Assembly (NCBI GenBank): GCA_903877165.1
Contig: CAIRCU010000024.1
Location: 4,688-68,687, forward strand
DNA: 64,000 bases
Direction: 5' to 3'
Origin: Methanobacteriota archaeon
GTDB lineage: Archaea; Thermoplasmatota; E2; DHVEG-1
Shown here: positions 19,842-55,050 of the stretch, in pieces
Numbering within the stretch: the stretch's first letter is position 1
Layout of the letters: every line of letters starts with the position of its first letter
Position numbers and translations under genes: made by a program
Notes under the pieces: model-generated
The model's input: only the letters and a program-made list of their open reading frames with translations
Databases searched by the model: none
Told to the model about the DNA's origin: nothing

Positions 19842-20291
19842 ATGAACTGCCCCTACTGTAACGCTCCAGAGACGAAAGTCACGGACTCTCGCGACACCGG
19901 CAAATACATCATCAGACGCCGCCGCGAATGCCTCCACTGCCAACGCCGCTTCACCACCTACGAGTCCATCGAAATGGAACCACTCTACGTCATCAAAAAG
20001 GACGGCAGGAAACAAAAATACGACCGCACCAAGATCAAAACAGGGATGCAAAAAGCCTTGGAAAAACGCCCGGTCACCGCAGAACAGCTCGAAGCAGCCC
20101 TCGACTGCATCGAAGAGAAAATACGGCGCAGCGGCCTCGAAGAGATCCCCAGCTCCACTATCGGCGAATACGTCATGGACTGCCTCAAAGACCTCGATCC
20201 GGTCGCCTACATCCGCTTCGCCTCCGTCTACCGGTCCTTCACGGACATCACCCATTTCGAAAAAGAGGTTAAGAATCTCACCAACCCATAA
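19842..20291 (+). CDS. nrdR: Transcriptional repressor NrdR (Zn-ribbon + ATP-cone)
   Basis: MNCPYCNAPETKVTDSRD…CLHCQRRFTTYE, followed by an ATP-cone. Confidence 0.9.
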   Translation: MNCPYCNAPETKVTDSRDTGKYIIRRRRECLHCQRRFTTYESIEMEPLYVIKKDGRKQKYDRTKIKTGMQKALEKRPVTAEQLEAALDCIEEKIRRSGLEEIPSSTIGEYVMDCLKDLDPVAYIRFASVYRSFTDITHFEKEVKNLTNP

Positions 20292-30592: not shown

Positions 30593-30760
30593 ATGGCAGC
30601 AGTCGTCAACAAAGAGTTGTGTACCGCTTGCGGTTCGTGCGCGTCCGTCTGCCCAGTGGACGCCATCGCAGTGAACGAGAAGGCTGAGGTGGACGCCGAC
30701 ACCTGCATCGATTGTGGCACCTGTGTGGATGAGTGCCCAGTGAAAGCGATCACCGTCTAA
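30593..30760 (+). CDS. 2x[4Fe-4S] ferredoxin (55 aa), below the ORF-track size cutoff
   Basis: Two cluster motifs, CTACGSCASVCP and CIDCGTCVDECP. GGAGGT RBS 8 nt upstream. Confidence 0.7.
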   Translation: MAAVVNKELCTACGSCASVCPVDAIAVNEKAEVDADTCIDCGTCVDECPVKAITV

Positions 30761-35633: not shown

Positions 35634-37028
35634 ATGCGGAGTAAAGAATACAAGTATAGAACAGCATCATTAATGCATATCGGCAGTACTCTTTTTTTTA
35701 CGGCAGTACTCATGATTTCATCTCTTACGTATTCAATTGGGACTTCTGCGTCTGGAACTCGAAATGATCCACCTAACAAACCAAATACTCCAGACCCGGC
35801 GAATGCATCAACGAACGTCTCCATCACTGCACAGCTCAGCTGGATCGGTGGTGATCCAGACCCCGAGGATGTGGTAACGTACGATGTGTATTTCGATACG
35901 GTGTCTCCGCCCGCTCTCATGGTGAATAATCAGTCTGCAACCTCATACGATCCCGGCCTCATGGAGTACCTAACGACGTATTATTGGCAGGTTGTTGCTT
36001 GGGATGGCCAGGGCAATTCTACAGCAGGCGAAGTATGGGAATTTACTACGGTGCCAAATCATCCGCCAAATATGCCAGCCAACCCAGATCCAGCAAATGA
36101 GTCAACAGACGTCTCCATACAGACGAATCTTTCATGGATTGGAGGCGACCCCGATAATGATTCGGTGATCTATGATGTTTATTTTGGGGATACGACCACA
36201 CCTCCGCAAATCGCAAGCAACCTCACCGATACGACCTGTGCGCTTCCAACACTCGCCTACAGCACGACGTACTATTGGCGAATCATCGCCACAGATAATC
36301 ATTCCGCGAACACAACTGGGCCACTATGGATGTTTACTACCGAAATCAGAACCGGGATTTGGATCACCATAACGAAACCGGTGAACAACTCGTTCTATTT
36401 CCAGGATCAGCGACATAACCTCTCTGGCAGGACGATAATATACGGTTCGATAAATATCACAGCCGATGCATCCGCAGACGCAGGAATCGCAAGGGTCGAA
36501 TTTTATATCGATGGGAAACTCAAAGGGAACGATACCACGGCACCATATAGCTGTATTTGGAAACCGCTTCTCCAGTTCAACGGTCTTTCCCTGAGGCATA
36601 CAATCAAGGTGGTCGCTATTGACACGAAAGGGAAGAACGCCTCCGCTGAGATCAACGTCACCAAATGGAGGTTCCACGTGCTTCCCTGGCTCGTCATCGG
36701 AGCCGTTGCGCTTTCATCCATGGTGCCGCATACCAAGATGAAGGGATTTGTCTTTAACCTCCGGGCTAAAGGCACGGGGTATACCTTTTTTGTCCTGCGC
36801 ATGTCCTACCATACCGTCGGCCCGTTAAAGAACGAACGGGGAATCATCAAGATGAAACGCTGCGTCGCCAGCATCCTCGTCGGACCAATGATGATCTTGA
36901 AGCTCGGGCCGGGCCACATGTTCTCCTATGTCTCCATCACATTCCTTGGGGGCGTCCAACTTGCGACACACTCCCTAGGAAACCTATTCGACCGTTCTCC
37001 ACAGCCCCTCCGTAAGAACGGTCGATAA
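35634..37028 (+). CDS. Secreted/anchored protein with two tandem FN3-like repeats, an Ig-like domain and a C-terminal TM segment
   Basis: GGAGGA RBS. N-terminal signal/TM. Two ~99-aa repeats (…PDPANxSTxVSI…LSWIGGDPD…YDVYF…TYYW…). 'VEFYIDGKLKGNDTTAPYSCIWKP' Ig-like domain. Many N-x-S/T sequons. Confidence 0.7.
   Translation: MRSKEYKYRTASLMHIGSTLFFTAVLMISSLTYSIGTSASGTRNDPPNKPNTPDPANASTNVSITAQLSWIGGDPDPEDVVTYDVYFDTVSPPALMVNNQSATSYDPGLMEYLTTYYWQVVAWDGQGNSTAGEVWEFTTVPNHPPNMPANPDPANESTDVSIQTNLSWIGGDPDNDSVIYDVYFGDTTTPPQIASNLTDTTCALPTLAYSTTYYWRIIATDNHSANTTGPLWMFTTEIRTGIWITITKPVNNSFYFQDQRHNLSGRTIIYGSINITADASADAGIARVEFYIDGKLKGNDTTAPYSCIWKPLLQFNGLSLRHTIKVVAIDTKGKNASAEINVTKWRFHVLPWLVIGAVALSSMVPHTKMKGFVFNLRAKGTGYTFFVLRMSYHTVGPLKNERGIIKMKRCVASILVGPMMILKLGPGHMFSYVSITFLGGVQLATHSLGNLFDRSPQPLRKNGR
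35763..36353 (+). repeat. Two tandem ~297-nt intragenic repeats encoding FN3-like modules
   Basis: Protein repeats beginning NDPPNKPNTPDPANAST… and NHPPNMPANPDPANEST…. Confidence 0.6.
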
Positions 37029-37663: not shown

Positions 37664-39712
37664 ATGGCCTCCAGACCTATCGTGATCATCGCCATCGCCC
37701 TCCTCCTCATCCTTCCCATCATCCCTCCGCACGCAAGCGCACACGCGCCCACCGCAGTCCTTTACGTCGACGACGATAACACCCAAGGACCCTGGGACGG
37801 CACCCCAGACCATCCCTACCAGCACATCACAGACGCTGTCGCCAACGCCACCGACAACGACACCATCTACATCGAAAACGGCACGTACCACGAACAAATC
37901 ACCCTCACCAAACCCCTCACCATCCAAGGCCAAGAAAAAAACACCACACTCGTCACCGCGGACGGCAAAGGCAGCATCCTGACCATTGGAGCAGACCATG
38001 TCTGCGTCACTGACCTCACCTTCCTCAACTCCGCAGGCAGACCAGACACCGCGGCCGTCGACATCCACGCGGACCACACCATCATCTCCCGCTGCATCAT
38101 CTACCGGCACCGACTCGGCATCGCCATCACCGGCCATACCGACCTCACCGTTACCGACTGCATGATCCACGTCACCCAACAAGGCATCCATATCGTGAAC
38201 AGCAGTCGCATCACCATCACCGACACGTACCTCTACCACAACGCCATCAGCATCCTCCTCAAAGGATCCTCAGCCGCCACCATCAACGCATGTTTCATGC
38301 ATACCAATGGCGTCGGCTGCTACGCCCAACACGACACCGCCCTCACTATCACCCACTGCGCATTCTGCGACAACAACGACAACCAAGGCGGCGTCTTCCT
38401 CCGGAACACTACATCCACAACCATCACCGACTCCTACTTCAAGAACAACGGCGTCGGCGTCGGCATCAAAAGTAGCAACGACACCACTATCGCCCACAGC
38501 ACGTTTATCAAAAACACGCACTTCGCCGTGAAACTCTGGAACGCCACAGCCACCACTCTACAAAATAACAGCTTCGACAGTAACCTCCGCAACGCAGTCT
38601 ACGCGGAATACAGCACCCTCACTTACACCCGCAACCTGCTGCACAACGACACCAATTACGGACTCTACGCAGCACATACCACCGCGAACGCCACCCGCAA
38701 CTGGTGGGGATCAGCGCTCGGGCCAGCCCGCACCAGCTACTCCACACGCGCCGACCGAGGCTCACGAGGACAAGGAACACTGCAGTACTACCCCTGGCTC
38801 TTCACAGCACCAAACGACACCGGCATCACCTGGGACCCCTTAACTCAGTTCACCGCCCCGCAGCACCCGGACACCTGGAAACCCACTCTCACCCTGCCTG
38901 GCAGCGACACGGACGGCGACGGCGCCCCGGACTGGTGGGAGATCAAATGGGGATACGACCCGACCGTCCCCGATGACCATGCCCATCTCGACCCGGACGG
39001 CGACGGCCTCACCAACCTTCAGGAATGCTTCACCGACGCCATGGGCTCAAACCCCTTCCACAAAGACATCTTCCTCGAAATCGACTGGCTCACCTCACTC
39101 ACCCCCAACGTCACCAACCAGCCGCCACAAAAATACCTCGACCAGATGATCGCCCCCTACGCCCAGCACAACATCACCCTTCACGTCGACACCGGGAACT
39201 TCGGCGGCGGCGAGGAGCTCCCTAGCAAAGCGGACCTCACGTACGAGGACATCGGCAACGACTACTGGGATCACTTCCTGAACGACGATCTAAACAACCC
39301 TAGAAAGGGCGTGTTCCACTACGGACTGCTGTGCGACGACAGCGAAGGCGGCGGCTTCGTGGTCATCGGCTGGGACGACCTCGACAGCTTCACCATTGCC
39401 TGCCAGCGGCTCCAGGAGAAATACACGCACTTCGCCAGAGGGCGGCTCTCGGTCGGCGGCTCCATGCACGAGCTAGGGCATCTGGAAGGACTCATCGCTG
39501 CCCGTTTCGGCGGTATCGACAACATGGCCGCAACCCACCTCCAGGAGAAAGGCTTCTGGGAGTACCGCCACTACCACAGCTGTCTGAACTACTGTTACAC
39601 GTATTTCCTGATGAACTACTCCGACGGGTCCCACGGGACCAACGACTTTAACGACTGGGCGCACCTCAACTTCACGTTCTTCAAGGCAACGGAGTTCGCG
39701 CTCCCCTCTTAA
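37664..39712 (+). CDS. Secreted chimeric protein: parallel beta-helix (NosD-like) + Ca-binding D-x-D-G-D repeats + C-terminal HExxH zinc-metallopeptidase-like domain
   Basis: Signal peptide MASRPIVIIAIALLLILPI. 'LYVDDDNTQGPWDGTPDHPYQHITDAVANATDNDTIYIENGTY' and beta-helix coils. 'DTDGDGAPDWWE…DPDGDGLTNLQE'. 'GGSMHELGHLEGL'. More than 25 N-x-S/T sequons. Confidence 0.7.
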   Translation: MASRPIVIIAIALLLILPIIPPHASAHAPTAVLYVDDDNTQGPWDGTPDHPYQHITDAVANATDNDTIYIENGTYHEQITLTKPLTIQGQEKNTTLVTADGKGSILTIGADHVCVTDLTFLNSAGRPDTAAVDIHADHTIISRCIIYRHRLGIAITGHTDLTVTDCMIHVTQQGIHIVNSSRITITDTYLYHNAISILLKGSSAATINACFMHTNGVGCYAQHDTALTITHCAFCDNNDNQGGVFLRNTTSTTITDSYFKNNGVGVGIKSSNDTTIAHSTFIKNTHFAVKLWNATATTLQNNSFDSNLRNAVYAEYSTLTYTRNLLHNDTNYGLYAAHTTANATRNWWGSALGPARTSYSTRADRGSRGQGTLQYYPWLFTAPNDTGITWDPLTQFTAPQHPDTWKPTLTLPGSDTDGDGAPDWWEIKWGYDPTVPDDHAHLDPDGDGLTNLQECFTDAMGSNPFHKDIFLEIDWLTSLTPNVTNQPPQKYLDQMIAPYAQHNITLHVDTGNFGGGEELPSKADLTYEDIGNDYWDHFLNDDLNNPRKGVFHYGLLCDDSEGGGFVVIGWDDLDSFTIACQRLQEKYTHFARGRLSVGGSMHELGHLEGLIAARFGGIDNMAATHLQEKGFWEYRHYHSCLNYCYTYFLMNYSDGSHGTNDFNDWAHLNFTFFKATEFALPS

Positions 39713-40818
39713 TCCTCGCGCCATTTCGTCAACAGGACGCCTGCAACAAAGAAGATCACAGCGAAGACCAAGACGATCGCCGCATTGGTGATCGCAAGGG
39801 ACTGGTTCATGTAGATCATGGAGTTGCGCAACGCCTCGTTCACGTAATACAATGGGAGCACCTGGGCGATCGTTTGCAAAAACGACGGCATCTGTGCTAG
39901 CGGGAAGAACGTACCGGCCAGGAACATCATCGGGAAGCTGATAGCCCCCGCCGCCATATCCGCAGTCTCCTCTTCTTTAACGAACCGGCCGATGATCATG
40001 CCGATGCCGGAGAACAGGAAGCTTGAGGAGACAATCGTCAGGATCATCAACGGCGTGATGTTCACCTTGACGCCCCATACCAGGACGCCGACAGCCAACG
40101 CGATCGTCGTCGTCAGGAACGACAGGAACAGCATGAACGTCATCTTCGCCAGGATCCACTCAGAACGAGTGATAGGCGTCGTGAGCAGCTTGCGCAGAAT
40201 CCCGTCCTTACGGTACTTCGTATTCCGTTCGATGCTGCCGTAGATCGCCTGCTGCATGATTGTGAACCCGATCATCCCCGGGATGAAGAAATCGATGTAG
40301 TTGAACTTCTCCGTAATCGTACTCTGGGTCGACAGTCCGACGATATTACGCCCATTCGACAAGCCCATGTTCATGGTCTGAATGATGTTGGAAATCACGC
40401 TGCGGATAATCTCCGTGGATGAGGTCTCCGTTGGATCGTAATAGAACGTCAAATTCACTTTCGAGTTGGGATCAACGAATGATTGATTGATATGCTGGGC
40501 GTACCCATTCGGGATCACAAGGAAGGCTTTGATGTCATGGTCTTTAATGTACTTCGTCACATTCTCCGATTCGTTGACCATGGTGATCTTCAGCACCCCG
40601 GTCTTGTTCATGATGTCCATGAGTTGCGACGACATCGCGGAATGGTCATGGTCCTGCACGTATACCGAGAAATTAGTGCTGCCGGTGCCGGAGAAAATCG
40701 CACCGAAAATCAAGATCAGCATAATAGGGAATAACAGCGACCAGAACACGGTACCGCGGCTGCGCCACCAGCTCTTGATGCTGAAGAGCACATCCATGCC
40801 GATGATGCGCGGGTTCAT
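39709..40818 (-). CDS. ABC-2 family exporter permease
   Basis: 369 aa. N-terminal TM, extracytoplasmic loop, C-terminal TM bundle. ATGA overlap with the ATPase gene. Confidence 0.8.
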   Translation of the reverse strand: MNPRIIGMDVLFSIKSWWRSRGTVFWSLLFPIMLILIFGAIFSGTGSTNFSVYVQDHDHSAMSSQLMDIMNKTGVLKITMVNESENVTKYIKDHDIKAFLVIPNGYAQHINQSFVDPNSKVNLTFYYDPTETSSTEIIRSVISNIIQTMNMGLSNGRNIVGLSTQSTITEKFNYIDFFIPGMIGFTIMQQAIYGSIERNTKYRKDGILRKLLTTPITRSEWILAKMTFMLFLSFLTTTIALAVGVLVWGVKVNITPLMILTIVSSSFLFSGIGMIIGRFVKEEETADMAAGAISFPMMFLAGTFFPLAQMPSFLQTIAQVLPLYYVNEALRNSMIYMNQSLAITNAAIVLVFAVIFFVAGVLLTKWRED

Positions 40819-41873
40819 GCTTCAGCCTCCTGGAGTTTCGACCCCGTCAGTTCAAGGAAGACTTCCTCGAGGTTCGACCGGCGGATCTCGATGCTTTCGT
40901 AATCGATCGCCTCATGACGCAGTGTGGACAGGACGTCAAGGACACGATCCTTATAGGTGATGGTGACAGCTATGGTGCCGTTCCCCTCGGAGCGCGCGTC
41001 GTATCCCTCATCTTTGAGAATCACCAGTGCTTCTGATGAGGTGCAGCCTTGGATGTGCAGTACGCTGCCGCGCCCGTACGTGGTAATGAGATCATCAAGC
41101 GACCCCTCCGCGATGATGCGTCCTTTGTAGATGATGGCGATGTGGTCGGCGAGGAACTCGGCCTCTTCCATGTAATGCGTCGTGAGGAACACGGTCTTGC
41201 CTTGCTGTCGAAGGTTCGCGACCACCTGCCAGACCTCCCGGCGCGCCTTCGGGTCCAGCCCTGTGGTCGGCTCATCCAGGAACACGATGTCCGGCTCGTT
41301 GACCAAGGACAAGGCGACACCGACCCGCTGCTTCAAACCGCCGGAAAGATTCCGGTACAGCATCTTCTCATACGACTGCAGATTCAGGGCAGTGATGATC
41401 CCATCAATATCCGCTTGCTTCTTGTACAGTTTGGAGAAATACTCGAGGGTCTCCCGGACGGTGAGGCGTTCGAAGGAATGGAACTCCTGCGGCAGGATGC
41501 TGATTTGTTCTTTGATTTTATCGAAGCTGGTCTTCGTATCCTCACCGAGGAGCTTGACGGTGCCCGCGGTCGGCTCACGGATCGACTCGATCATCTCGAC
41601 TGTGGTCGTTTTCCCTGCGCCGTTTGGCCCAAGGAACGCGAAGATCTCCCCTTTCTTGACGTTAAAGGAGATGTCGTTGACGGCGACGAGATTCCCGTAC
41701 ACCTTCTTTAGATGCGAGACCTCAATCGCATAGGACGCGGTGTCCTCAGCTGGGAACACTATCTTGCCTTGGTGCAGGCAGGAGGGACAGGTGACGATGA
41801 CCTGTTCCCCGGCGGACCCGGAGAAGGAAGCGATTTCCCGGCATGAAGGGCATTGAAAACGCTTAGTGACCAT
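40815..41873 (-). CDS. ABC transporter ATP-binding protein with an N-terminal C4 zinc-ribbon extension
   Basis: MVTKRFQCPSCREIASF…VIVTCPSCLHQGKIVFP, then Walker A GPNGAGKTT, LSGGLKQRVGVALSL and Walker B FLDEPTTGLD. Confidence 0.9.
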   Translation of the reverse strand: MVTKRFQCPSCREIASFSGSAGEQVIVTCPSCLHQGKIVFPAEDTASYAIEVSHLKKVYGNLVAVNDISFNVKKGEIFAFLGPNGAGKTTTVEMIESIREPTAGTVKLLGEDTKTSFDKIKEQISILPQEFHSFERLTVRETLEYFSKLYKKQADIDGIITALNLQSYEKMLYRNLSGGLKQRVGVALSLVNEPDIVFLDEPTTGLDPKARREVWQVVANLRQQGKTVFLTTHYMEEAEFLADHIAIIYKGRIIAEGSLDDLITTYGRGSVLHIQGCTSSEALVILKDEGYDARSEGNGTIAVTITYKDRVLDVLSTLRHEAIDYESIEIRRSNLEEVFLELTGSKLQEAEA

Positions 41874-41939
41874 AATCCTCTCTATCCAGACGCGTAATTA
41901 ATTTGATACCCACATAAAAAACAGGTATTTATGTTTTCC

Positions 41940-42617
41940 CTATAGAGTCCTCTTGTCGATGAACGTACCGTCGGTCTTAAAGGTATATAAAAGCGGGACT
42001 CCAGTTGGGATCTCTAGAGAGGGAATCGTCTCATCCGGGATGTTCTCCACGTATTTGACGATGGAACGCAGGCTGTTGCCGTGGGCGACAACCAGCAGGG
42101 TTTTGCCCTTGCGGAGCTCAGGCTCAATGAATGATTGATAGTACGGGATGGTTCGTTCGCAGGTGTCTTTCAGCGATTCTCCACCTGGCGGTCGGACGTC
42201 GTAGCTGCGGCGCCAGAGATGGACCTGCGCCTCGCCGTACTTCTTGCGCGTCTCGTCTTTGTTCAGGCCTTGGAGGTCACCGTAGTAGCGCTCCGCGAGC
42301 TCCACGGACTGGTAAATCGGCAGCTCGGTGTCCATTTTGCCGGAATGGCGCTCCCAGTCGCGGATGCGTGCCTCTTCATGGTGTATGATGAGCGTGCGCG
42401 GATCCGTAAGTTCACCGAGGACATAGTACAGGGTTTGGATCGCGCGAAGCATGTGGGATACGTACCCGGCGTCCAACCGTATTCCCTGGAGTTTTTTGCC
42501 TGCGGAGATCGCCTCTTGGATGCCTTTGGGTGAGAGTGGGACGTCCACCCAGCCGGTGAACCGGTTCTCAAGGTTCCATTGGGATTGTCCATGGCGGATG
42601 AGGATAAGCTGGGACAT
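41940..42617 (-). CDS. gpmA: 2,3-bisphosphoglycerate-dependent phosphoglycerate mutase (histidine-phosphatase family)
   Basis: LILIRHGQSQWNLENRFTGWVDVPLS catalytic His motif. C-terminal 'VAHGNSLR'. Confidence 0.85.
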   Translation of the reverse strand: MSQLILIRHGQSQWNLENRFTGWVDVPLSPKGIQEAISAGKKLQGIRLDAGYVSHMLRAIQTLYYVLGELTDPRTLIIHHEEARIRDWERHSGKMDTELPIYQSVELAERYYGDLQGLNKDETRKKYGEAQVHLWRRSYDVRPPGGESLKDTCERTIPYYQSFIEPELRKGKTLLVVAHGNSLRSIVKYVENIPDETIPSLEIPTGVPLLYTFKTDGTFIDKRTL

Positions 42618-42631
42618 AGGGCTCTCCTTCG

Positions 42632-44140
42632 TTATACGTCATACACGTCATAGTACTTGTTTTTTAAATAATGCACGTACGTCTGAGAATGCAGTCCATG
42701 GCCGCAGGCACGTGTGATGGTCTCGTCGGCGGTGAGCAGCCGGCCGTGTCGGTGGACGTGCTCTCGGAGCCACAGCAGGATTGGTGCGAGGTTCCCCGTA
42801 GCGAGGTCGTCGGTGACGGTCGGGTGGTCTTTGGTGAGCGCCTCGTAGAGTTGGGCGGCGTAGATGCTGCCGATGGCGTAGGTCGGGAAGTAGCCGAAGT
42901 CGCCGCCGCTCCAGTGCATGTCCTGCAGCACACCGTCGCGGTCGGATGTCGGCGTGACTCCTAGCAGCTCCTGCATCGTCTCGTTCCATGCGTTTGGGAG
43001 TTCTTTGACGGTCAGTGTTTGGTCGATGAGGGCGCATTCGAGTTCGAACCGCAGGATGACATGCAGACAGTAGGTGAGTTCATCCGCCTCGATTCTGATT
43101 AGCGAGGGGCGTACTTGGTTGATCGTCTGGTACCATGCTTCGAGGCCGATGTTTTGAAGCTGTGCTGGTGCCGTGGATTGGAAGACCGGGTAGAAGTACT
43201 GCCAGAATGCCTTGTTCCTCGCGATCATGTTTTCCCAGAAGCGGGATTGTGATTCGTGGAGTCCTAGCGAGGGGGCGTCGGAGATGACGGTGTCCCGGTA
43301 TGGGCCTTTGGGCAGTCCGAGTTCGTAGAGGGCATGTCCCGCTTCATGGACGGTGGAGAAGAAGGCGAACAGGGGTCCGTCTCGTTCGTAATTCGTAGTA
43401 ATGCGGACGTCCTCGTCGCCGAGGGTCGTAGTAAACGGGTGGGTTGAGACGTCAAGGCGTGTCTCGTCGGGCGGCAGGGCCATGAGGCGGAGGATCTGTG
43501 TGCTGAGCGCTTTCTGCTGGTCGACGGTGAGGGTCGTTTGGATGGGCTGTTGTGTGGTATATCGTTTGGTGGCGGTGATGGCCTCTAGCATCGAGGTGAG
43601 TTGGGTGCGTAGGGTGTGGAATTCGCGTTTGAGGATGTCGACGGTCATGCCCTCTTCGTAGTCGTCGAGGAGGCTGTTGTAGAGCGGTCCTGGCTGTCTG
43701 ACGTAGTCGCAGTATTCTCGCTCGAGGGCGATGATATGGTCGAGGTGGGGGGCGAATTCTGTGTAGGTGTTTTGGGCGCGTGCGTGTTCCCAGGTTTGGT
43801 ACGCGAGTGCCGTGGCCTTGGAGATTTTTTCGGTGAAGGCCGGGGGTACTTTCCTGGCTTTGTCTATGTCTTTGTGGAGGCGGCTGACGACATGTTGGTC
43901 GTGGTCCGCGAGCGTCTTGAAGGTGGTGTCGCTGGTGAGGGTCTGGATGTGGTGGTAGAAGGTGTCGGAGATGAGGCGTTCGTGGGAGAGGCGGGCGAGG
44001 AGTGCGAGTTGGTCGGATCGTTCCTGGATGCCTTTGGGCGGCATGTAGGTCATCTGGTCCCAGCCGAGGAGGGCGCCGATGCCGCCGAGCAGGGAGAGTT
44101 CTTTTTGTTCGGTGTAGATGTAGGATAGTGACGTGTTCAT
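42632..44140 (-). CDS. Carboxypeptidase Taq (M32) family metallopeptidase
   Basis: HEAGHALYE zinc site. M32 hallmarks HPF, DVRITT, GLHESQSRFWEN, IRIEADELTY and GYFPTYAIGS. Confidence 0.9.
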   Translation of the reverse strand: MNTSLSYIYTEQKELSLLGGIGALLGWDQMTYMPPKGIQERSDQLALLARLSHERLISDTFYHHIQTLTSDTTFKTLADHDQHVVSRLHKDIDKARKVPPAFTEKISKATALAYQTWEHARAQNTYTEFAPHLDHIIALEREYCDYVRQPGPLYNSLLDDYEEGMTVDILKREFHTLRTQLTSMLEAITATKRYTTQQPIQTTLTVDQQKALSTQILRLMALPPDETRLDVSTHPFTTTLGDEDVRITTNYERDGPLFAFFSTVHEAGHALYELGLPKGPYRDTVISDAPSLGLHESQSRFWENMIARNKAFWQYFYPVFQSTAPAQLQNIGLEAWYQTINQVRPSLIRIEADELTYCLHVILRFELECALIDQTLTVKELPNAWNETMQELLGVTPTSDRDGVLQDMHWSGGDFGYFPTYAIGSIYAAQLYEALTKDHPTVTDDLATGNLAPILLWLREHVHRHGRLLTADETITRACGHGLHSQTYVHYLKNKYYDVYDV

Positions 44141-47403: not shown

Positions 47404-48765
47404 ATGGTTGAACTGAAAATTCAGTGTCCCACCTGTAAACATCAGATACTTGTTCGCGGGAAGCCTTCAGAAAAAATCATTATTACCTGCCCACAATGCA
47501 ATACACGCGGTGAATTCACTTTTCCTCTTGATGCTTCCACAGCTCCCGTCCAAAACGAACCGGACACACAGAGACCATTAGGAGTAACCATATTAGCAAT
47601 ACTGGCGATTTTTTATGCATCGACGAATATTTTCAAACTACTATTTTCTGCATCTCTACTGAACTTAGCAAGCCCTTTGAATTCTTTAAATCTGATTCCA
47701 CCCCTTCTACTGCTGCTTGATATTGTAGTGAGTGCAGTGTTCTTCGTTATCGCATACGCATTCTGGAAAGGATTGCAATGGTCTTGGTTTGTCGCAATTA
47801 TTCTCCTCGTTATCGAAATTGTACTCCAGATCAGTGTTCCTTTATCACTTGCTATTTTTTTAAAGACCCCTTTCTCAGGCTTTTTTTATTACCTCCTAAT
47901 AATATACGCCGTTGTTTTCGTAGTGATATTTAGTCTGATTTTATTTTATCTCACAAGACCCCATGTGAAAACGTACTTTCATGTTGGTCATCGCGGTGAT
48001 TTCAAATCAATCATCAGAGCGAAGAGAAAAATCGTGTATGGTCTTGTGATCATCCTCATCATGACAAGTATAATTGTAGTGTTAGGTTTTCAATCAACAG
48101 GTACTATTTCTTTGAAAAGTGTTCAGACGCAAGAAAATCCTCGGGAACCTGGTGACATGACCATTACCGCAGAACTCACTGGGGGTTCACCCTTTGGGAG
48201 AGTCAACGCGTCTCTCTTCTATGCAACATATTTTGGCGAGGGCAGTGAAAGCGGTTCTGAAACCATGCAACCTATGGGGATGAATAGATATTCAGCGATA
48301 CTCCACGGATCAAATGGATCGGAGATCTGGTGCGTAATAGAATCAGGAAATATTGTGTTAGGGGAACGTACTTTTCAGGAGGGGCACGTCGAGAGAAGCA
48401 GCAGAACCTCTCTCGCAATTACCAATATCACACAAACCCCGGAGACACCAACAACACAGACAATGTCCATCACCATCACAGTACATGTCACAAGCAATGC
48501 GACAATCACTGACGTCATGTTCATAAAAGAATTCATCGCTCCTTCCGGCTATAACGGCAGCAGCGATTCAGACATGCAGAAAATAAACAATGACACCTAT
48601 TCTGAGACCATCTATGCGTCTGGCGCTGAAGGATTCGATACAGGTTTCTCAGGTGAAAATCCGCAGGGAACTTTTGTCTCCGGCACGACAATATATTACC
48701 GAATTGCTGCTAAAGATGCATCAGGGAATACCGCGGTACAAACCAAACACATCACCATAAAATAA
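47404..48765 (+). CDS. AT-rich gene: N-terminal C4 zinc ribbon + 4-5 TM + large C-terminal extracytoplasmic domain, hypothetical
   Basis: MVELKIQCPTCKHQILV…IIITCPQCNTRGEFTFP, then hydrophobic helices. C-terminal Thr/Ser-rich beta-rich region with sequons. Confidence 0.55.
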   Translation: MVELKIQCPTCKHQILVRGKPSEKIIITCPQCNTRGEFTFPLDASTAPVQNEPDTQRPLGVTILAILAIFYASTNIFKLLFSASLLNLASPLNSLNLIPPLLLLLDIVVSAVFFVIAYAFWKGLQWSWFVAIILLVIEIVLQISVPLSLAIFLKTPFSGFFYYLLIIYAVVFVVIFSLILFYLTRPHVKTYFHVGHRGDFKSIIRAKRKIVYGLVIILIMTSIIVVLGFQSTGTISLKSVQTQENPREPGDMTITAELTGGSPFGRVNASLFYATYFGEGSESGSETMQPMGMNRYSAILHGSNGSEIWCVIESGNIVLGERTFQEGHVERSSRTSLAITNITQTPETPTTQTMSITITVHVTSNATITDVMFIKEFIAPSGYNGSSDSDMQKINNDTYSETIYASGAEGFDTGFSGENPQGTFVSGTTIYYRIAAKDASGNTAVQTKHITIK

Positions 48766-48930: not shown

Positions 48931-50733
48931 ATGAAAAACTATATAGCCGACGCCCTCCATATTCCACTGGGGGATTCCATGAAGACCAGTAGAGCCTCGC
49001 GCGTGCTCGTCTGTTACGTCCTATTACTCTTGATCGCAACCAGTCTGTATGCCAACATCGGGGCGCAAAGCCCACTTGGGGGCGGCAAACCCGCGGGCCC
49101 CTTCCCCAGCGGCATGCTCTTGTTTGCTCCAGTCTCAGGGTCAACCACGTATCTCATGGATAGCAACGGCACGATTAATCACACCTGGCCCTGCACGTAC
49201 ACGCCGCAGCTCGCCCCGTACTGGATAGGGAACGGCTCCATCGTCTATCCAATCAATAATGGCGGCGGCCTGGAAAAAATCGCATGGAACGGAACCGTGA
49301 CTTGGGTATACCAATTCAACCGACCGGGAAGCTACTGTCACCACGATATCGTACCGCTCCCCAACGGCGACGTCCTGATGATCGTCCAGGAAGTGAAGAC
49401 ACACGCTGAGGCAGTCGCCGCGGGACGCAACCCCGCGACCGTCGGCGACACGTTCCTCCCAGACTACCTCATCGAAGTCAAACCAACGGGACCGACGAGC
49501 GGGACGATCGTCTGGGAATGGCACCAATGGGATCATCTCATCCAGGACTATGACTCCTCGAAGCAGAACTACGGTGTCGTCGGAGACCACCCCGAGTTAA
49601 TCGACATCAATTTCGGCGAATACTTCACCGGCGATTGGATCCATACGAATTCCGTGGACTACAACCCCGCGTTTGACCAAATCCTGATCAGCGCCCATGA
49701 CTTCGACGAAGTCTGGATCATCGACCACAGCACCACCACCCAAGAGGCAGCGGGCCACACCGGTGGCCGGTACGGCCATGGTGGCGACCTTTTGTACCGC
49801 TGGGGGAACCCGAAGGCCTACCGCCGCGGGGATGCAAGTGATGAGAAAATGTACTTCGAGCACCAGTGCACGTGGATCAAACCCGGGCTTCCCGGTGCTG
49901 GCGACATCCTTATCTACGACAACGGCAACAACCGTCCCGGAGGCCCCTATTCGACGGTGGATGAGTTTACACCAACGGTGTCCGCGGATGGTTACTATTA
50001 CATCAACCCGGGTGAAGCATACGGTCCTGATAATTTCACATGGAGCTATGTCGCCACTCCCCCGCAGAGCATGTACTCGAGCATCTACAGCGGCGCGCAA
50101 CGCCTCCTGGACGGGAACACGATGATCTGCGTCGGGGTCCCTGGGCAGTTCATCGAAGTCTCACCAGACGATCAGGTCGTATGGCAGTATACGAACCCGT
50201 TCCCTGACTCCGGCGATAACTCCGTATTCAAAGTCGAGTATATCCCCCCGACACCGCCAGAAAAACCGAATCTCGATGCCATTGGTAGACTGGTATGGAC
50301 GGACGTCAAACCTGGGGCCGTCGTCAACGGGAGCTTTCAGGTGGTGAACATTGGGGATTCCAATTCCAGATTGAATTGGAAGGTAGACAAGATCTCTCTC
50401 GGTTGGGGGAACTGGACGATTGCGCCTGAGTCCGGCGTGAACCTCACTCCCGAGGAGGGGCCGGTGACGGTTCACGTGCAGGGATTCATTCCCGACAAAA
50501 CGAATAAAGCGTTCCAAGGAAGCCTTCTGGTTTTGAACCAGGACAACACATCGGATAACGATACGGTCCCGGTGATCATACAGACCTCCTTGAGTACACC
50601 GTTTTCACCTGCGCATCCCTTCTTTGATCTTCTGAGGTATTGGCTTTCTTATATGAAGAATTATGTGTGGAGGCATGAGTACGGATCGCTTCCTTGTTTC
50701 CACACGAGAGTGGCCGGTGGGACGATTGGTTAG
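48931..50733 (+). CDS. Secreted beta-propeller protein, arylsulfotransferase (ASST; PF05935/PF14269)-like; GC-rich copy
   Basis: Signal peptide. Conserved core TIVWEWHQWDHLIQD…GDWIHTNSVDYNPAFDQILISAH…WIIDHSTTT. Paralog of 53320..55050. Confidence 0.55.
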   Translation: MKNYIADALHIPLGDSMKTSRASRVLVCYVLLLLIATSLYANIGAQSPLGGGKPAGPFPSGMLLFAPVSGSTTYLMDSNGTINHTWPCTYTPQLAPYWIGNGSIVYPINNGGGLEKIAWNGTVTWVYQFNRPGSYCHHDIVPLPNGDVLMIVQEVKTHAEAVAAGRNPATVGDTFLPDYLIEVKPTGPTSGTIVWEWHQWDHLIQDYDSSKQNYGVVGDHPELIDINFGEYFTGDWIHTNSVDYNPAFDQILISAHDFDEVWIIDHSTTTQEAAGHTGGRYGHGGDLLYRWGNPKAYRRGDASDEKMYFEHQCTWIKPGLPGAGDILIYDNGNNRPGGPYSTVDEFTPTVSADGYYYINPGEAYGPDNFTWSYVATPPQSMYSSIYSGAQRLLDGNTMICVGVPGQFIEVSPDDQVVWQYTNPFPDSGDNSVFKVEYIPPTPPEKPNLDAIGRLVWTDVKPGAVVNGSFQVVNIGDSNSRLNWKVDKISLGWGNWTIAPESGVNLTPEEGPVTVHVQGFIPDKTNKAFQGSLLVLNQDNTSDNDTVPVIIQTSLSTPFSPAHPFFDLLRYWLSYMKNYVWRHEYGSLPCFHTRVAGGTIG

Positions 50734-51195: not shown

Positions 51196-53253
51196 ATGGA
51201 TTCAGGTCTGCTGATGAGAAAGTGTTCTGCTGTCGGAATCATCCTCTTGTTCCTAGGAATGTGCGTCATTCCAGCAGCTGCACAGGACATTGAGAAATCA
51301 TCGTTTCCGGCATCACGAGGGAATTGGTTGTATGTCGGTGGTTCAGGCCCAGGGAACTATACGAAGATTCAGGATGCGATTGACAACGCAAGTGACGGGG
51401 ATACGGTGTACGTGTATAGCGGAACGTATGCTGGATCTGTCGTCATTACAAAATCAATTAACCTCATTGGTGAGGATAAGAATACAACGGTCATCAGTGG
51501 ATATTTTGCCTACACGGTGTACATACTGTCTGATTGGGTCAATTTGAGTGGGTTTACCATTTATACGAACGGGCGTCTCGGTGAGGGTATTCGAATAGAT
51601 TCATGCCACAACACCTTTGTAGGCAACATCATCGACGCCCCCCGTGATAGAATTCGGGTTGCTGGTGACAGCAACATCGTCTCCGGGAACACCATCAGAA
51701 ACTGCTATCTCTTTCTTGTTGGTGATGGCAACACTATCTCAGGAAACGTCATCTCAAACACCTATTATGGCATATACTTAACAGATTATGCTTCTAACAA
51801 CATTATTTCAAATAATTCTCTTTTCGACTCAGGTCTATTTATCGCCGATGCTGCTGTTTGGCATAACACCGTTACGAACAACACGGTGAATGGCAAACCG
51901 CTTGTCTATCTTGCTGATGAATCCGACTTGGTACTCGATGGTGATGCAGGGCAAATACTTCTTGTGAATTGCACCAATATCACTGTACAACACCAAGAAA
52001 TATCCAACACTACTGTCGGTATCCAACTTTGGGGATCCACTTCCTGCGTCATCTCCGGAAACACTATCGCTGGGAATCATTTTGGCATGTACCTCTGCGG
52101 TTCGAACAACACCATAATTGACAACACCATCACCCATAACTATAACGGCATCTTTCTTACAGGGGACAACAATACCATCTCTGGTAACACCTTCACAAAC
52201 AACGATGACGGCATATACCTCTCATATAGCGATCACAACGGCATCATCAATAACACTATCACAAACAACTATTATGGCATGCTGCTGAACGACGGTGGCG
52301 ATGTCAATACTCTTACTAATAACATCATAACAAACAACTATTACGGTATTTTTCTTTCAGCCAACAGCAACATCATCTCCGGTAACACTATCTCGAACAA
52401 CGATGACGGCATCTACCTGTCGTATAGCGATCGCAACACTATGATTAGGAACACCATTACAGACAACTCTTATGGCATACTGCTGAATTATAGTAGCGAT
52501 TTCAGTAGTATTATCAATAACACTCTTTCAAACAACAGCCATGCTGTCATAGGTCTTTCTGGCAACAGGAACACTATGATCTCTGGTAACACCATCTCGA
52601 ACAACGGCGATGGGGTATACCTCTCGTTTAGCGATCACAACGGCATCTTCAATAACACCATCACAAACAACGACGACAATGGCGTGCGTCTGTTTGGCGA
52701 CAGCAACATCATCTCTGGCAACACCCTCACACACAACAATGGTAGTGGCATCTACATAGATGACAGCGATTACAACACCATTATCAGTAACACCATTTCA
52801 AACAACAGCGATGACGGCATACGTCTTTTCGGTGACGACAATGCGGTCTCTACCAACATCATCACAAATAACAGCAACGGCATATACGTCTTGAGCCACA
52901 AGAACAACACAATCTCAGGTAATACTATTGCTTGGAACAATTGGTCTGGTGTATACCTGAGTGGTTCCAGGGGCAATACCATTTCTGGGAACTGCATCTC
53001 AACAAATAGACAAGGCATCTTTTTCGTTTTATCAACCAACAATACCGTCCTTAAGAACAACTTTCTGGGAAACAAACGGCATGCTCTTTTTGAAAACTGC
53101 ACAAACCTTTGGAACAGGAATTATTGGGGTAGACCACGGATACTTCCCAAACTCGTTTTTGGTATAAGAATGGTACAGAATAAATGGCCGTTGCCACTAA
53201 TCGATATCGACCGGCATCCCTCATTTCTACCTTATAACATCCCCCAGGACTGA
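51196..53253 (+). CDS. Secreted parallel beta-helix repeat protein (NosD/PbH1-like) with ~22-aa coils; AT-rich gene
   Basis: Signal peptide. 'WLYVGGSGPGNYTKIQDAIDNASDGDTVYVYSGTY' N-terminal module is paralogous to 14069..15403. More than 20 'ISGNTI(S/T)NN…GIYL' coils. Confidence 0.75.
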   Translation: MDSGLLMRKCSAVGIILLFLGMCVIPAAAQDIEKSSFPASRGNWLYVGGSGPGNYTKIQDAIDNASDGDTVYVYSGTYAGSVVITKSINLIGEDKNTTVISGYFAYTVYILSDWVNLSGFTIYTNGRLGEGIRIDSCHNTFVGNIIDAPRDRIRVAGDSNIVSGNTIRNCYLFLVGDGNTISGNVISNTYYGIYLTDYASNNIISNNSLFDSGLFIADAAVWHNTVTNNTVNGKPLVYLADESDLVLDGDAGQILLVNCTNITVQHQEISNTTVGIQLWGSTSCVISGNTIAGNHFGMYLCGSNNTIIDNTITHNYNGIFLTGDNNTISGNTFTNNDDGIYLSYSDHNGIINNTITNNYYGMLLNDGGDVNTLTNNIITNNYYGIFLSANSNIISGNTISNNDDGIYLSYSDRNTMIRNTITDNSYGILLNYSSDFSSIINNTLSNNSHAVIGLSGNRNTMISGNTISNNGDGVYLSFSDHNGIFNNTITNNDDNGVRLFGDSNIISGNTLTHNNGSGIYIDDSDYNTIISNTISNNSDDGIRLFGDDNAVSTNIITNNSNGIYVLSHKNNTISGNTIAWNNWSGVYLSGSRGNTISGNCISTNRQGIFFVLSTNNTVLKNNFLGNKRHALFENCTNLWNRNYWGRPRILPKLVFGIRMVQNKWPLPLIDIDRHPSFLPYNIPQD
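52180..52671 (+). repeat. Three ~90-nt near-identical segments spaced ~200 nt apart inside the beta-helix gene
   Basis: 52180-52269, 52378-52467 and 52582-52671 each encode (I)SGNT(F/I)(T/S)NNDDGIYLSYSD(H/R)N…. Confidence 0.6.
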
Positions 53254-53319: not shown

Positions 53320-55050
53320 ATGGAGAAAGACGGAAAATGTCGGATCTTCGTTTTTTGTTTCATACTCGTACTTGTTGGACCTTGTCTGTCCTCGGTACTT
53401 GAAGCGAAGAACATGCCTCTCGATATGAAAACATCGGGAAGATTTCCAGATGGCCAGATTTTGTTTACTCCGTTTTATTCAACAACAACCTATTTAATCA
53501 ATGGCACGGGCGCGGTAAATCATACGTGGTCAAGTGCGTATGCACCCAGGTACGCTTCGTATTGGTTAGGGAACGGTACCATTCTCCTTCCAATCGATAC
53601 GGGCTCCGGTGGTTTCCAAGAAATTGCATGGAATGGAACGGTGATCTGGGACTACCGATTTTCTCGATCTGGATGCTGCTGCCATCATGATGTGAAGCCG
53701 TTACCAAATGGAAATGTGTTGATGATCGTTCAGGAAATAAAAACACCCGCTCAAGCGATTGCCGCGGGACGCGACCCAGCAACCATCGAGAACTCATTTT
53801 TCCCAGATTTCCTCATCGAAGTCCACCAAACAGGTCCGTCCAGTGGTACAATCGTCTGGGAATGGCACCAATGGGATCATCTCATCCAGGATTTCGATTC
53901 AACAAAAAACAACTATGGTGTCGTCGGAGATCACCCGGAATTAATTGACATCAATTTCGGTGAATATTTTTATGGAGACTGGATTCACACGAATTCAGTG
54001 GATTACAACCCAGCGTTTGACCAAATACTCATCAGCGCCCATAATTTCGACGAAGTCTGGATCATCGATCACAGCACAACCACTGAGGAGGCCGCTGGCC
54101 ACACCGGTGGGCACTATGGGCACGGCGGCGATCTGCTGTACCGCTGGGGAAACCCACAGGCCTACCAACGCGGAAACGCAAGTGATAAAAAATTGTTCTT
54201 CCAACACCAATGCATCTGGATAAAACCCAGGTATCCTGGTGAAGGAGACATACTTATTTTCGACAACGGCAACAACCGTCCTGGTGGACCCTATTCGACA
54301 GCCGATGAATTTACACCGCCAGTGGACTCCAACGGATCGTATTATCTCGAACCGGGTTCAGTATATGGTCCTGAGAACTATACTTGGAGTTATACGGCGG
54401 TTCCACCGGGGAGTCTGTATTCAGACATTTTCGGTGGTGTACAGCGCCTTCCGGACGGGGATACGCTAATTTGCGATGGAGTCCCCGGAAAATTTATTGA
54501 AGTGACGCCGGAGAAAACAGTCGTCTGGGAGTATGTCAATCCATATCCTTGGCCAACCATGAGTCCGGTGTTTAAAATTGAATACATCTGCCCTATGCCA
54601 CCTTTGCCACCGCCAAAGCCTGATTTATATTGCATAGGGCGTCTCGTATGGGTGGGCATTCAGCCAGGGGTAAACGTCACGGGGAGCTTTCAGGTGCAGA
54701 ACTTCGGAGATCCTGGCTCACGATTGAACTGGACGGTGAATTTGTCCTCCCTGATGTGGGGGAAATGGACGATTACTCCCTCGTCCGGCGTAGACCTCAC
54801 CCCCGAGGAGGGGCCCGTAAGCGTGCAGGTGAATGTGATTGCGCCTGGCGAGAAAAACGCGGAGTTCCATGGGGCCCTCATGGTACAGAACAAGGAGAAT
54901 GCGTCGGATTTCGGTACAATCCCAATAACTCTGACAACCCCGTTGATCAACTCTCTTCCACCAGCTCACCCCTTCATGAATATGGTGCGGCAGTGGCTTT
55001 CATTTTTGAAAGATGTGTTGAAAAGAGCCGTTGCTTTAGTGGAACATTGA
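53320..55050 (+). CDS. Secreted beta-propeller protein, ASST-like; AT-rich paralog
   Basis: Signal peptide MEKDGKCRIFVFCFILVLVGPCLSS. Core nearly identical to the 48931 gene over about 150 aa; termini divergent. Confidence 0.55.
   Translation: MEKDGKCRIFVFCFILVLVGPCLSSVLEAKNMPLDMKTSGRFPDGQILFTPFYSTTTYLINGTGAVNHTWSSAYAPRYASYWLGNGTILLPIDTGSGGFQEIAWNGTVIWDYRFSRSGCCCHHDVKPLPNGNVLMIVQEIKTPAQAIAAGRDPATIENSFFPDFLIEVHQTGPSSGTIVWEWHQWDHLIQDFDSTKNNYGVVGDHPELIDINFGEYFYGDWIHTNSVDYNPAFDQILISAHNFDEVWIIDHSTTTEEAAGHTGGHYGHGGDLLYRWGNPQAYQRGNASDKKLFFQHQCIWIKPRYPGEGDILIFDNGNNRPGGPYSTADEFTPPVDSNGSYYLEPGSVYGPENYTWSYTAVPPGSLYSDIFGGVQRLPDGDTLICDGVPGKFIEVTPEKTVVWEYVNPYPWPTMSPVFKIEYICPMPPLPPPKPDLYCIGRLVWVGIQPGVNVTGSFQVQNFGDPGSRLNWTVNLSSLMWGKWTITPSSGVDLTPEEGPVSVQVNVIAPGEKNAEFHGALMVQNKENASDFGTIPITLTTPLINSLPPAHPFMNMVRQWLSFLKDVLKRAVALVEH

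Follow-up and report, generated by a model that had tools for sequence, protein, structure and literature searches.

A zinc-ribbon module shared by an ABC exporter ATPase and an unrelated membrane protein in a Thermoplasmatota archaeon

Two proteins of one archaeal locus begin alike

The 64,000-nucleotide stretch of DNA analyzed here, called the window throughout, lies on contig CAIRCU010000024.1 (positions 4,688 to 68,687 of the forward strand) of assembly GCA_903877165.1, from a Methanobacteriota archaeon that GTDB places in the Thermoplasmatota (E2; DHVEG-1). Two of its genes, one for an ABC ATPase and one for a membrane protein, start with a short segment that carries four cysteines (Table 1). 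The first 50 residues of the ATPase (minus-strand translation, 41724..41873) read MVTKRFQCPSCREIASFSGSAGEQVIVTCPSCLHQGKIVFPAEDTASYAI, and the membrane protein begins with MVELKIQCPTCKHQILVRGKPSEKIIITCPQCNTRGEFTFPLDASTAPVQ. A first-pass annotation had taken these N termini for one and the same C4 zinc-ribbon module, and the pairwise comparison bears this out: the two ribbons align without a gap from Met1, with 16 of 43 residues identical (37%) and a pairwise E of 9e-13. When the full-length proteins are compared, the 43 N-terminal residues are all that aligns (E = 7e-9), the rest giving E > 10. The cysteine spacing is identical in both proteins, CxxC-x17-CxxC, or more fully QCPxC-x15-(I/V)TCPxC. 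The fixed spacing and shared flanking residues had thus been read correctly, but the first spacer, given earlier as 14 or 15 residues, is 15 in both copies and never 14. By regular-expression search of the six reading frames, no further Cys4 motif of the ribbon type turned up in any real gene of the window; the remaining CxxC...CxxC matches belong to other proteins or to spurious frames.

Table 1. Coordinates of the two ribbon-bearing genes, their parts, and the partner permease gene in the window.
Feature	Position	Strand	Remarks
ABC ATPase gene, 352 residues	40815..41873	-	Open reading frame translation
ABC ATPase ribbon, residues 1-41	41751..41873	-	Cys8, Cys11, Cys29, Cys32; loop G19-S-A-G-E23
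ABC ATPase short linker (AEDTASY) from ribbon to first strand of the nucleotide-binding domain, residues 42-48	41730..41750	-	
ABC nucleotide-binding domain and C-terminal regulatory-type domain, residues 49-352 and stop	40815..41729	-	
ABC-2 permease gene	39709..40818	-	Pfam ABC2_membrane_3 E = 7.5e-42, ABC2_membrane E = 3.9e-30
Membrane protein gene, 453 residues	47404..48765	+	Open reading frame translation
Membrane-protein ribbon, residues 1-41	47404..47526	+	Cys8, Cys11, Cys29, Cys32; loop G19-K-P-S-E23
Membrane-protein flexible linker, residues 42-58	47527..47577	+	
Five predicted transmembrane helices, residues 59-229	47578..48090	+	Region conserved in 54 homologues
Two β-sandwich (FN3/Ig-like) domains, predicted extracellular, residues 230-453 and stop	48091..48765	+	

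The two hosts also proved to be what they had been named at first pass. The ATPase matches Pfam ABC_tran with E = 7.5e-32 and DrrA1-3_C weakly, and it scores 256.1 bits on the TIGR01188 drrA model, under the cut-off of 312.45. With its ABC_tran domain and an adjoining ABC-2 permease gene, whose start shares 4 nucleotides with the ATPase stop, it has the architecture of a DrrA-type/ABC-2 exporter, and the gene pair is found again on four other contigs that encode an identical ATPase. The second host is polytopic, and no Pfam family matched it. The ribbon-bearing genes lie 5.5 kb apart on opposite strands, with housekeeping genes for a gpmA-like phosphatase, an M32 carboxypeptidase, an Exo III-like nuclease, an RsmB-like methyltransferase, and RNase HII between them; they do not form one operon.

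The similarity extends from the pair to the families behind it. A profile built from the ribbons of ABC ATPases alone recovers the membrane protein with 42.8 bits and E = 3e-6 (Z = 1.84e9), the window ABC ATPase itself scoring 68.8 bits and every other open reading frame (ORF) of the window 11 bits or less. The consensus of the ABC homologues is xEKxF+CPxCxxIxTFSGxPGExxxVTCPxCxxxG+xTF, and the ribbon is kept at identical length in all of the best 120 ABC ATPase homologues (67-100% identity). Solved ABC ATPases align with the window protein from about residue 48 onward, by sequence as well as by structure, and none has the ribbon. To call the ribbon unusual on an ABC ATPase, as the first reading did, is therefore right for the solved structures, but within Thermoplasmatota it is the rule for this transporter. 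Together with the family described below, these data make it almost certain that the N termini of the two proteins are homologous 41-residue Cys4 zinc β-ribbons, copies of a module that is specific to Thermoplasmatota, mobile, and fused to many unrelated proteins working at the membrane, with vertical inheritance after fusion. Its build is, in all likelihood, that of two CxxC knuckles at hairpin turns with 17 residues between them, the hairpins being joined by a conserved G-x-P-G-E loop.

A ribbon family centered on Thermoplasmatota

We searched 1.84 billion cluster representatives with HMMER, using a family profile of 41 positions (A1), and obtained 399 clusters at a threshold of E <= 1e-3, 44 of them with E <= 1e-10. 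Exact x17 spacing is present in 132 of the 149 matches listed, and in 112 of these 132 the ribbon lies no more than 45 residues from the N terminus; among the other 17 matches are C2H2 arrays from eukaryotes and further multi-copy ribbons, which score by summation. A profile search of this kind had been proposed as the check on the shared module, with a generic rubredoxin-like resemblance lacking any family signal as the outcome that would count against it. The 399 clusters and the cross-class E = 3e-6 are a different outcome, that of a clean and definable family with fixed length, fixed cysteine spacing, and a signature loop.

A degenerate DNA pattern (C-P-x-C-x7-G-x-P-G-E-x5-C-x2-C-x3-G), run against one genome per GTDB species, located at least 120 loci. 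They are spread over 74 assemblies, and 32 assemblies have between two and four loci each. Because the pattern demands G-x-P-G-E, it misses both window copies, and the locus counts are lower bounds. The pattern is in frame in 120 of the 120 loci listed and stands nearly always at the start of the ORF, save for C-terminal copies on MMPL and DUF5305 proteins. All but two of the loci come from sequences labeled as archaeal metagenome-assembled genomes (MAGs), mostly Thermoplasmatota, Thermoplasmatales, or Thermoplasmata, a few archaeal loci bearing the generic labels Euryarchaeota, Methanobacteriota, or uncultured archaeon. The two others are L002 (JAFCGC010000037.1, Pacearchaeota) and L070 (JAGMEL010000390.1, WOR-3 bacterium), on contigs of 2.1-2.4 kb. 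Over the first 70 residues of the ribbon-ABC genes, L002 is identical to L057 and L070 is ~94% identical to L045 (Thermoplasmatota), and because of this near identity to Thermoplasmatota genes, both contigs are probably misbinned. A profile of the ribbon can flag probable misbinned contigs, besides improving the annotation of Thermoplasmatota MAGs and possibly serving as a taxonomic marker. Several ribbon-ABC ORFs end early, after 53-245 residues, with the contig continuing beyond them (L024, 61 residues; L087, 56 residues; L120; L012; L028). One long-read-looking assembly, CAWIEM01, supplied three of these, and the early-ending ORFs could be frameshift errors or pseudogenes.

Two independent CPxC...CPxC ribbons might resemble each other by chance or in a generic way, and 8 of the 16 identities between the window copies do fall in the two CPxC motifs; the Pfam matches of the family are likewise diffuse, sub-threshold, and spread over many ribbon families. 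Against this stand the cross-class profile match in a database of 1.84e9 sequences, the x17 spacing in 132 of the 149 matches listed, the common G-x-P-G-E loop, and the restriction to one phylum. We give this explanation next to no probability and regard chance resemblance as excluded.

Hosts and evolution of the module

The first-pass annotation had described the ribbon as portable, and both the range of hosts and its patchy presence within one host family agree. Pfam matches of the full-length proteins confirm ABC_tran, Heliorhodopsin, MMPL, T2SSE with HHH_5, Peptidase_S26, LTD (a lamin-tail-domain membrane protein), DUF5305, and PKD/Big_7 hosts. The ABC hosts fall into at least eight subfamilies (eight clusters at 50% identity of the nucleotide-binding domain, NBD) and are sometimes fused to their own ABC-2 permease. 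Two loci, L048 and L098, encode heliorhodopsins (Pfam Heliorhodopsin, E = 1e-97 and 4e-95), and the heliorhodopsin ribbons score 45-49 bits on the profile made from ABC ribbons alone. A further frequent class consists of small membrane proteins of ~160 residues that have no Pfam match. The fusion site is usually the N terminus of the host and less often the C terminus: among MMPL proteins the ribbon is N-terminal in L091 and near the C terminus in L006 and P0319, and C-terminal copies also occur on PKD proteins. Some proteins carry two to four ribbons in tandem (P0175, P0258, P0304, P0314, P0182, and P0217), P0175 (315 residues) having two of them on a Peptidase_S26 signal peptidase. All hosts are membrane-embedded or membrane-docked, and among the matches listed in the host census, neither DNA-binding proteins (helix-turn-helix or other) nor histidine kinases occur.

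Within the family of the window membrane protein, the six nearest relatives are the only ones with the ribbon. Distant relatives, some of them labeled ANME-1 or Methanosarcinales, start at SKRPLGVTIL, in the linker just before the first transmembrane helix (TM1), and this presence and absence argues directly for gain or loss of the domain. Compared with heliorhodopsin ribbons and with those of another ABC subfamily, the ribbon of the membrane protein has 59-66% identity. Most ribbons of its own family are hardly closer to it, the best identity there being 0.93 and the second-best 0.68, although the host domains across classes are unrelated. Residues conserved in all host classes besides the cysteines are a G, P-G-E, and a further G.

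Because differences are about twice as frequent at third as at second codon positions, and the cysteines have mixed codons, the ribbon segment must be translated and under purifying selection: pairwise differences among 25 orthologous ribbons are 16.6, 11.8, and 25.5 of 41 at the three codon positions, and the invariant cysteines are encoded by both TGT and TGC. Sharing a genome does not make ribbons more similar (42.5% identity within genomes, 43.2% between), and the nearest relative of any ribbon is always in another genome. The fusions are therefore old and vertically inherited, with no gene conversion, and the ribbons comprise at least two subtypes.

One instance of the ribbon was known before. 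In six heliorhodopsins of Thermoplasmatales, Bulzu et al. described a CxxC-17x-CxxC extension of the N terminus ("Znf-HeR", ntv1), for which HHpred indicated zinc_ribbon_4 and a role in downstream signaling was suggested (10.1101/2021.02.01.429150 / PMC8612252). This extension shares with the window ribbons its motif, phylum, and N-terminal cytoplasmic position, as well as up to 66% identity with the ribbon of the membrane protein, and it is the same module. The window hosts differ, being an ABC ATPase and a protein with five transmembrane helices and FN3 domains (5-TM/FN3) instead of heliorhodopsin; what is new is the occurrence on ABC ATPases and on other envelope machinery. Among the papers covered by our full-text searches, none reported the ribbon on ABC ATPases or on hosts other than heliorhodopsin. 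The paper on Znf-HeR reads the ribbon as a light-signal transducer, whereas it appears here as a general module on many host families, and a rhodopsin-specific reading is for that reason too narrow. Because the same tag occurs on at least eight ABC subfamilies and several other envelope proteins, a dedicated role in light signaling is unlikely.

Predicted structure and placement of the ribbon

We examined AlphaFold2 models of both window proteins. In the model of the ABC ATPase (mean predicted local distance difference test, pLDDT, 82), the ribbon consists of four strands in two hairpins with pLDDT ~80-83, and the linker falls below 50 at model residues 42-44 (model number being the true residue minus 1). 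The linker is poorly conserved in the alignment of homologues, and the AIEVSHLKKVY motif that directly follows it is conserved. A Foldseek search with this model returned TM_1403 (4yer), NosF (7o0y), and the NBDs of ABCA proteins, with E = 1e-26 to 1e-29 over ~300 residues. The model of the membrane protein (pLDDT 80) has a ribbon with pLDDT 90-95 and strands at residues 2-7, 14-19, 24-28, and 35-39. The linker that follows has a mean pLDDT of 58-68 over blocks covering residues 41-60 and drops below 50 at 46-51; helices are predicted at 59-88, 98-122, 125-152, 159-183, and 208-229, and the strands of the ectodomains at 236-325 and 338-451. Among PDB structures, Foldseek matched this protein to tandem FN3/Ig ectodomains (IL-4R, RbmA) with E ~1e-6. 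In both host models each CxxC sits at a hairpin turn (pLDDT 80-95), as in a Cys4 zinc β-ribbon.

Because five transmembrane helices separate them in the model, the ribbon and the FN3 ectodomains of the membrane protein are predicted to lie on opposite sides of the membrane, and both window ribbons would face the cytoplasm. In every host whose topology can be judged, the terminus that bears the module is cytoplasmic; hosts that establish this include ABC NBDs and T2SSE ATPases. The same placement was reported for Znf-HeR, in which the N terminus of heliorhodopsin is cytoplasmic and the modeled ribbon lies on the intracellular side (10.1101/2021.02.01.429150).

Relationship to curated zinc-ribbon families

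Current Pfam and NCBIfam models miss the ribbon family at their thresholds. The best scores are those of the membrane-protein ribbon, with 25.4 bits on PF13717 (Zn_ribbon_4, cut-off 30.3) and 20.4 on TIGR02098 (MJ0042_CXXC, cut-off 20.9); for the ABC ribbon the same two models give 14.9 and 11.0 bits. Neither ribbon reaches the cut-off of any Pfam or NCBIfam family. Only multi-copy proteins pass, through their summed score (P0217, 50.2 bits; P0182, 36.8 bits). When 50 ribbons of the family were compared with Pfam, 37 matched Zn_ribbon_3, 33 Zn_ribbon_4, and 20 Ribosomal_S27e at E < 0.01, with diffuse matches to IBR, DUF7560, LysW, and further families. A profile search of the PDB with the module gave spurious summed C2H2 matches and a weak match to eS27 (E = 0.013), and it found no solved structure of the ribbon family. 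We considered rubredoxin, TFIIB, LysW, Brz, and IBR as family assignments and rejected them all, the matches being sub-threshold and mutually inconsistent.

The rubredoxin comparison bears on a redox or metal sensor, in which the Cys4 site would lose Zn2+ (or bind Fe) upon oxidation or metal limitation and so switch many envelope proteins. Thiol switching by Cys4 zinc sites is familiar from other systems, Hsp33 and RsrA among them, and such precedents speak for this explanation. So does the proposal of Bulzu et al. that the cysteine-rich heliorhodopsin extensions could bind iron or zinc and be redox-active, together with the photoprotection genes found near Znf-HeRs (10.1101/2021.02.01.429150). 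Rubredoxin-type models, though, score far under their cut-offs (RUBY_RBDX, 15 bits against 26.5; rubredox_RCKP, 8.5 against 45), and Rubredoxin models do not figure in the top families of the 50 ribbons. Many of the source MAGs, moreover, appear by their names to derive from sediment, and constitutive structural zinc is the simpler reading. We consider a sensor quite improbable.

Similarly, the eS27 and S27e matches raise the question of a ribbon that binds nucleic acid or the ribosome, for example by tethering an mRNA or ribosome so that the protein is targeted to the membrane during translation. Nucleic-acid binding is common among zinc ribbons, and eS27 is the best match of the full module to any solved structure, the best S27e Pfam match of any single ribbon having an E of 3e-6. 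Yet matches of the S27e type remain sub-threshold and are accompanied by dozens of other ribbon families; no nucleic-acid enzyme occurs among the hosts, save for HHH_5 on T2SSE proteins, and the C-terminal copies on MMPL and PKD proteins cannot act co-translationally. The likeness to eS27 is probably a convergence of strand patterns around the two knuckles, and we regard a role in nucleic-acid binding as very improbable.

The closest ties lead to the MJ0042-type ribbons (PF13717, PF13719, and TIGR02098; ZitP and GltJ), of which the Thermoplasmatota ribbon is a lineage-specific relative. Zn_ribbon_4, which represents this type, ranks just behind Zn_ribbon_3, the two being the curated families closest to the ribbon. 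Both sets of ribbons have ~40 residues in two hairpins with CxxC knuckles, both stand at the extreme N terminus of membrane-associated proteins and face the cytoplasm, and both have promiscuous domain partners. The TIGR02098 model has CxxC-x19-CxxC spacing, whereas the window ribbons have x17, a G-x-P-G-E loop of their own, and a distribution that is archaeal and limited to one phylum. The archaeal ribbon also occurs in direct fusion with soluble ATPase domains (the ABC NBD and T2SSE), and not on transmembrane proteins alone.

A possible docking role at the membrane

The first-pass annotation had suggested a regulatory or interaction module. Because near-identical ribbons serve structurally unrelated hosts, the function of the ribbon is likely to be independent of the host. 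Several analogous ribbons work by docking. The zinc ribbon of GltJ (residues 1-42, with C5, C8, C28, and C31) is a regulated docking site that alternates between an internal linker and recruitment of MglB, and it is structurally like the ZitP zinc ribbon, which binds PopZ (PMC11135422). In haloarchaea, the C-terminal zinc ribbon of CdpC binds FtsZ1 (10.64898/2026.07.16.738847). On the strength of host independence and of these analogues, ZitP, GltJ, and CdpC, which are the best characterized, we tentatively favor a reading to which we give a little less than an even chance, namely that the ribbon would be a zinc-stabilized cytoplasmic docking handle for a shared partner.

The four cysteines would hold one metal ion, presumably Zn2+, and thereby stabilize a small rigid knob. 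This knob would hang by the inner face of the membrane on a short flexible linker, ~7 residues before NBD strand 1 in the window ABC ATPase and ~17 residues before TM1 in the 5-TM/FN3 protein. It would act as a handle for protein-protein docking of a soluble or peripheral partner common to the hosts, or of a few such partners, and these might recognize, position, or regulate envelope machines such as ABC-2 exporters, heliorhodopsin, MMPL proteins, secretion- or pilus-type ATPases, signal peptidase, and adhesin-like surface proteins. Archaea that are uncultured and globally abundant in sediments and the water column appear to have equipped their membrane machinery with a common cytoplasmic handle, and the binding partner, once found, could reveal how they organize or regulate transport and surface functions.

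Several observations weigh against a docking handle. Clustering of 835 ORFs from around the 120 ribbon loci listed revealed no small gene common to the host classes; it returned host-specific synteny only, with gpmA and the M32 carboxypeptidase beside the ABC ATPases of the window type, and permeases. The within- and between-genome identities given above leave no genome-specific co-variation. The conserved non-cysteine residues are mostly Gly and Pro of the turn type and perhaps purely structural, as in LetA (PMC13017536). Finally, with a linker of ~7 residues, the ribbon of the ABC ATPase could lie against the NBD of its own protein, close to the A-loop, instead of reaching a partner.

The last two points lead to a structural or allosteric element acting in cis, in which the ribbon would pack on its own host or pair with the ribbon of a second subunit, with no external partner. 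It would thereby support folding or assembly, or adjust activity, as has been proposed for the two ribbons of LetA. LetA and PqiA provide a model, their stacked two-hairpin ribbons (CXXC-Xn-CXXC, n = 11-18) lying in the cytoplasm right before the tetraspanin-like transmembrane domain of the transporter; those described here are similarly placed. The LetA ribbons contain zinc, as determined by inductively coupled plasma mass spectrometry, pair with each other in a single unit, and were judged to be structural; in a deep mutational scan their cysteines alone were intolerant to change, and they can be swapped with the ribbons of PqiA (PMC13017536). Consistent with a role in cis, the hosts described here are all oligomeric machines, four proteins (P0175, P0258, P0304, and P0314) have ribbons in tandem, the ABC linker is short, the conserved non-cysteine residues are mostly turn-forming, and no partner gene was found around the 120 loci listed. 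LetA differs, however, in that its ribbons pair within one polypeptide, appear purely structural, are bacterial, and belong to one transporter family. We detected no sequence relationship of the ribbon to LetA or PqiA, and PqiA is absent from the top 25 Pfam families listed.

Host-specific packing is also hard to reconcile with ribbons that remain 59-66% identical on hosts as different in fold as a 7-TM rhodopsin, a membrane protein with five helices, and the NBD of an ABC ATPase. The linkers vary from ~7 to ~20 residues and have low pLDDT, and most members of the membrane-protein family do without a ribbon. From general ABC architecture, the N termini of an NBD dimer would be far apart, and therefore two ribbons on 7-residue linkers could not meet. 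On balance, we think a role purely in cis rather unlikely, and a docking handle remains our preferred, if tentative, reading.

A bolder form of the docking handle would have a single reader, perhaps a cytoskeletal filament such as FtsZ/CetZ or a multi-ribbon scaffold like the relatives of CdpC, recognize the ribbon as a phylum-specific "address tag" and so position or co-regulate the envelope suite of Thermoplasmatota. Distant multi-ribbon relatives of CdpC are reported from all Thermoplasmatota classes (10.64898/2026.07.16.738847), and the tandem-ribbon proteins described above may overlap with them. We hold a single reader to be distinctly unlikely; if it existed, it would amount to an unrecognized layer of archaeal membrane organization.

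Gene neighborhood and other observations

The window ATPase resembles the ATPases of ABC-2 or type V exporters (NosF, TM_1403, ABCA NBDs, and DrrA) in its host domain and in its ABC-2 permease partner gene. It differs in the ribbon, the solved relatives having nothing before NBD strand 1, and in falling under the TIGR01188 cut-off. Its locus has a conserved gene order of gpmA-like phosphatase, M32 carboxypeptidase, ribbon-ABC ATPase, and ABC-2 permease (40815..44140, minus strand, in the window; also L018, L083, and others). The carboxypeptidase is a neighbor in 20 and the phosphatase in 14 of the 120 ribbon loci listed, and the full order recurs on the four other contigs with an identical ATPase; no functional link between these genes is obvious.

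A secreted-looking NosD-like β-helix protein of 682 residues is encoded at 37664..39712 (plus strand; Beta_helix E = 9e-24, NosD E = 4e-17), convergent with the ABC-2 permease gene and overlapping its 3' end. Since this gene abuts the permease, we considered membership in a NosDFY system and set it aside, the NosD-like gene lying on the opposite strand and the permease being of the ABC2_membrane_3 type. The NosF-like fold of the ATPase nevertheless raises the question of a NosDFY-like association despite the opposite strands. Upstream of the ABC locus lies a gene for a Big_7 protein (35634..37028, plus strand). Downstream of the membrane protein, a co-directional run of genes for predicted surface proteins (48931..50733, 51196..53253, and 53320..55050, all plus strand) encodes two arylsulfotransferase-like proteins and one strong NosD/β-helix protein.

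Three further cysteine patterns in real-looking genes of the window were identified by eye, each scoring 11 bits or less against the ribbon profile. These are an NrdR-like N-terminal CxxC...CxxC at 19848..19940, two HypF-like zinc fingers at 26350..26577 in a 749-residue open frame (ORF 26038..28248, 736 residues), and a 2x[4Fe-4S] ferredoxin-like pattern at 30620..30724, all on the plus strand.

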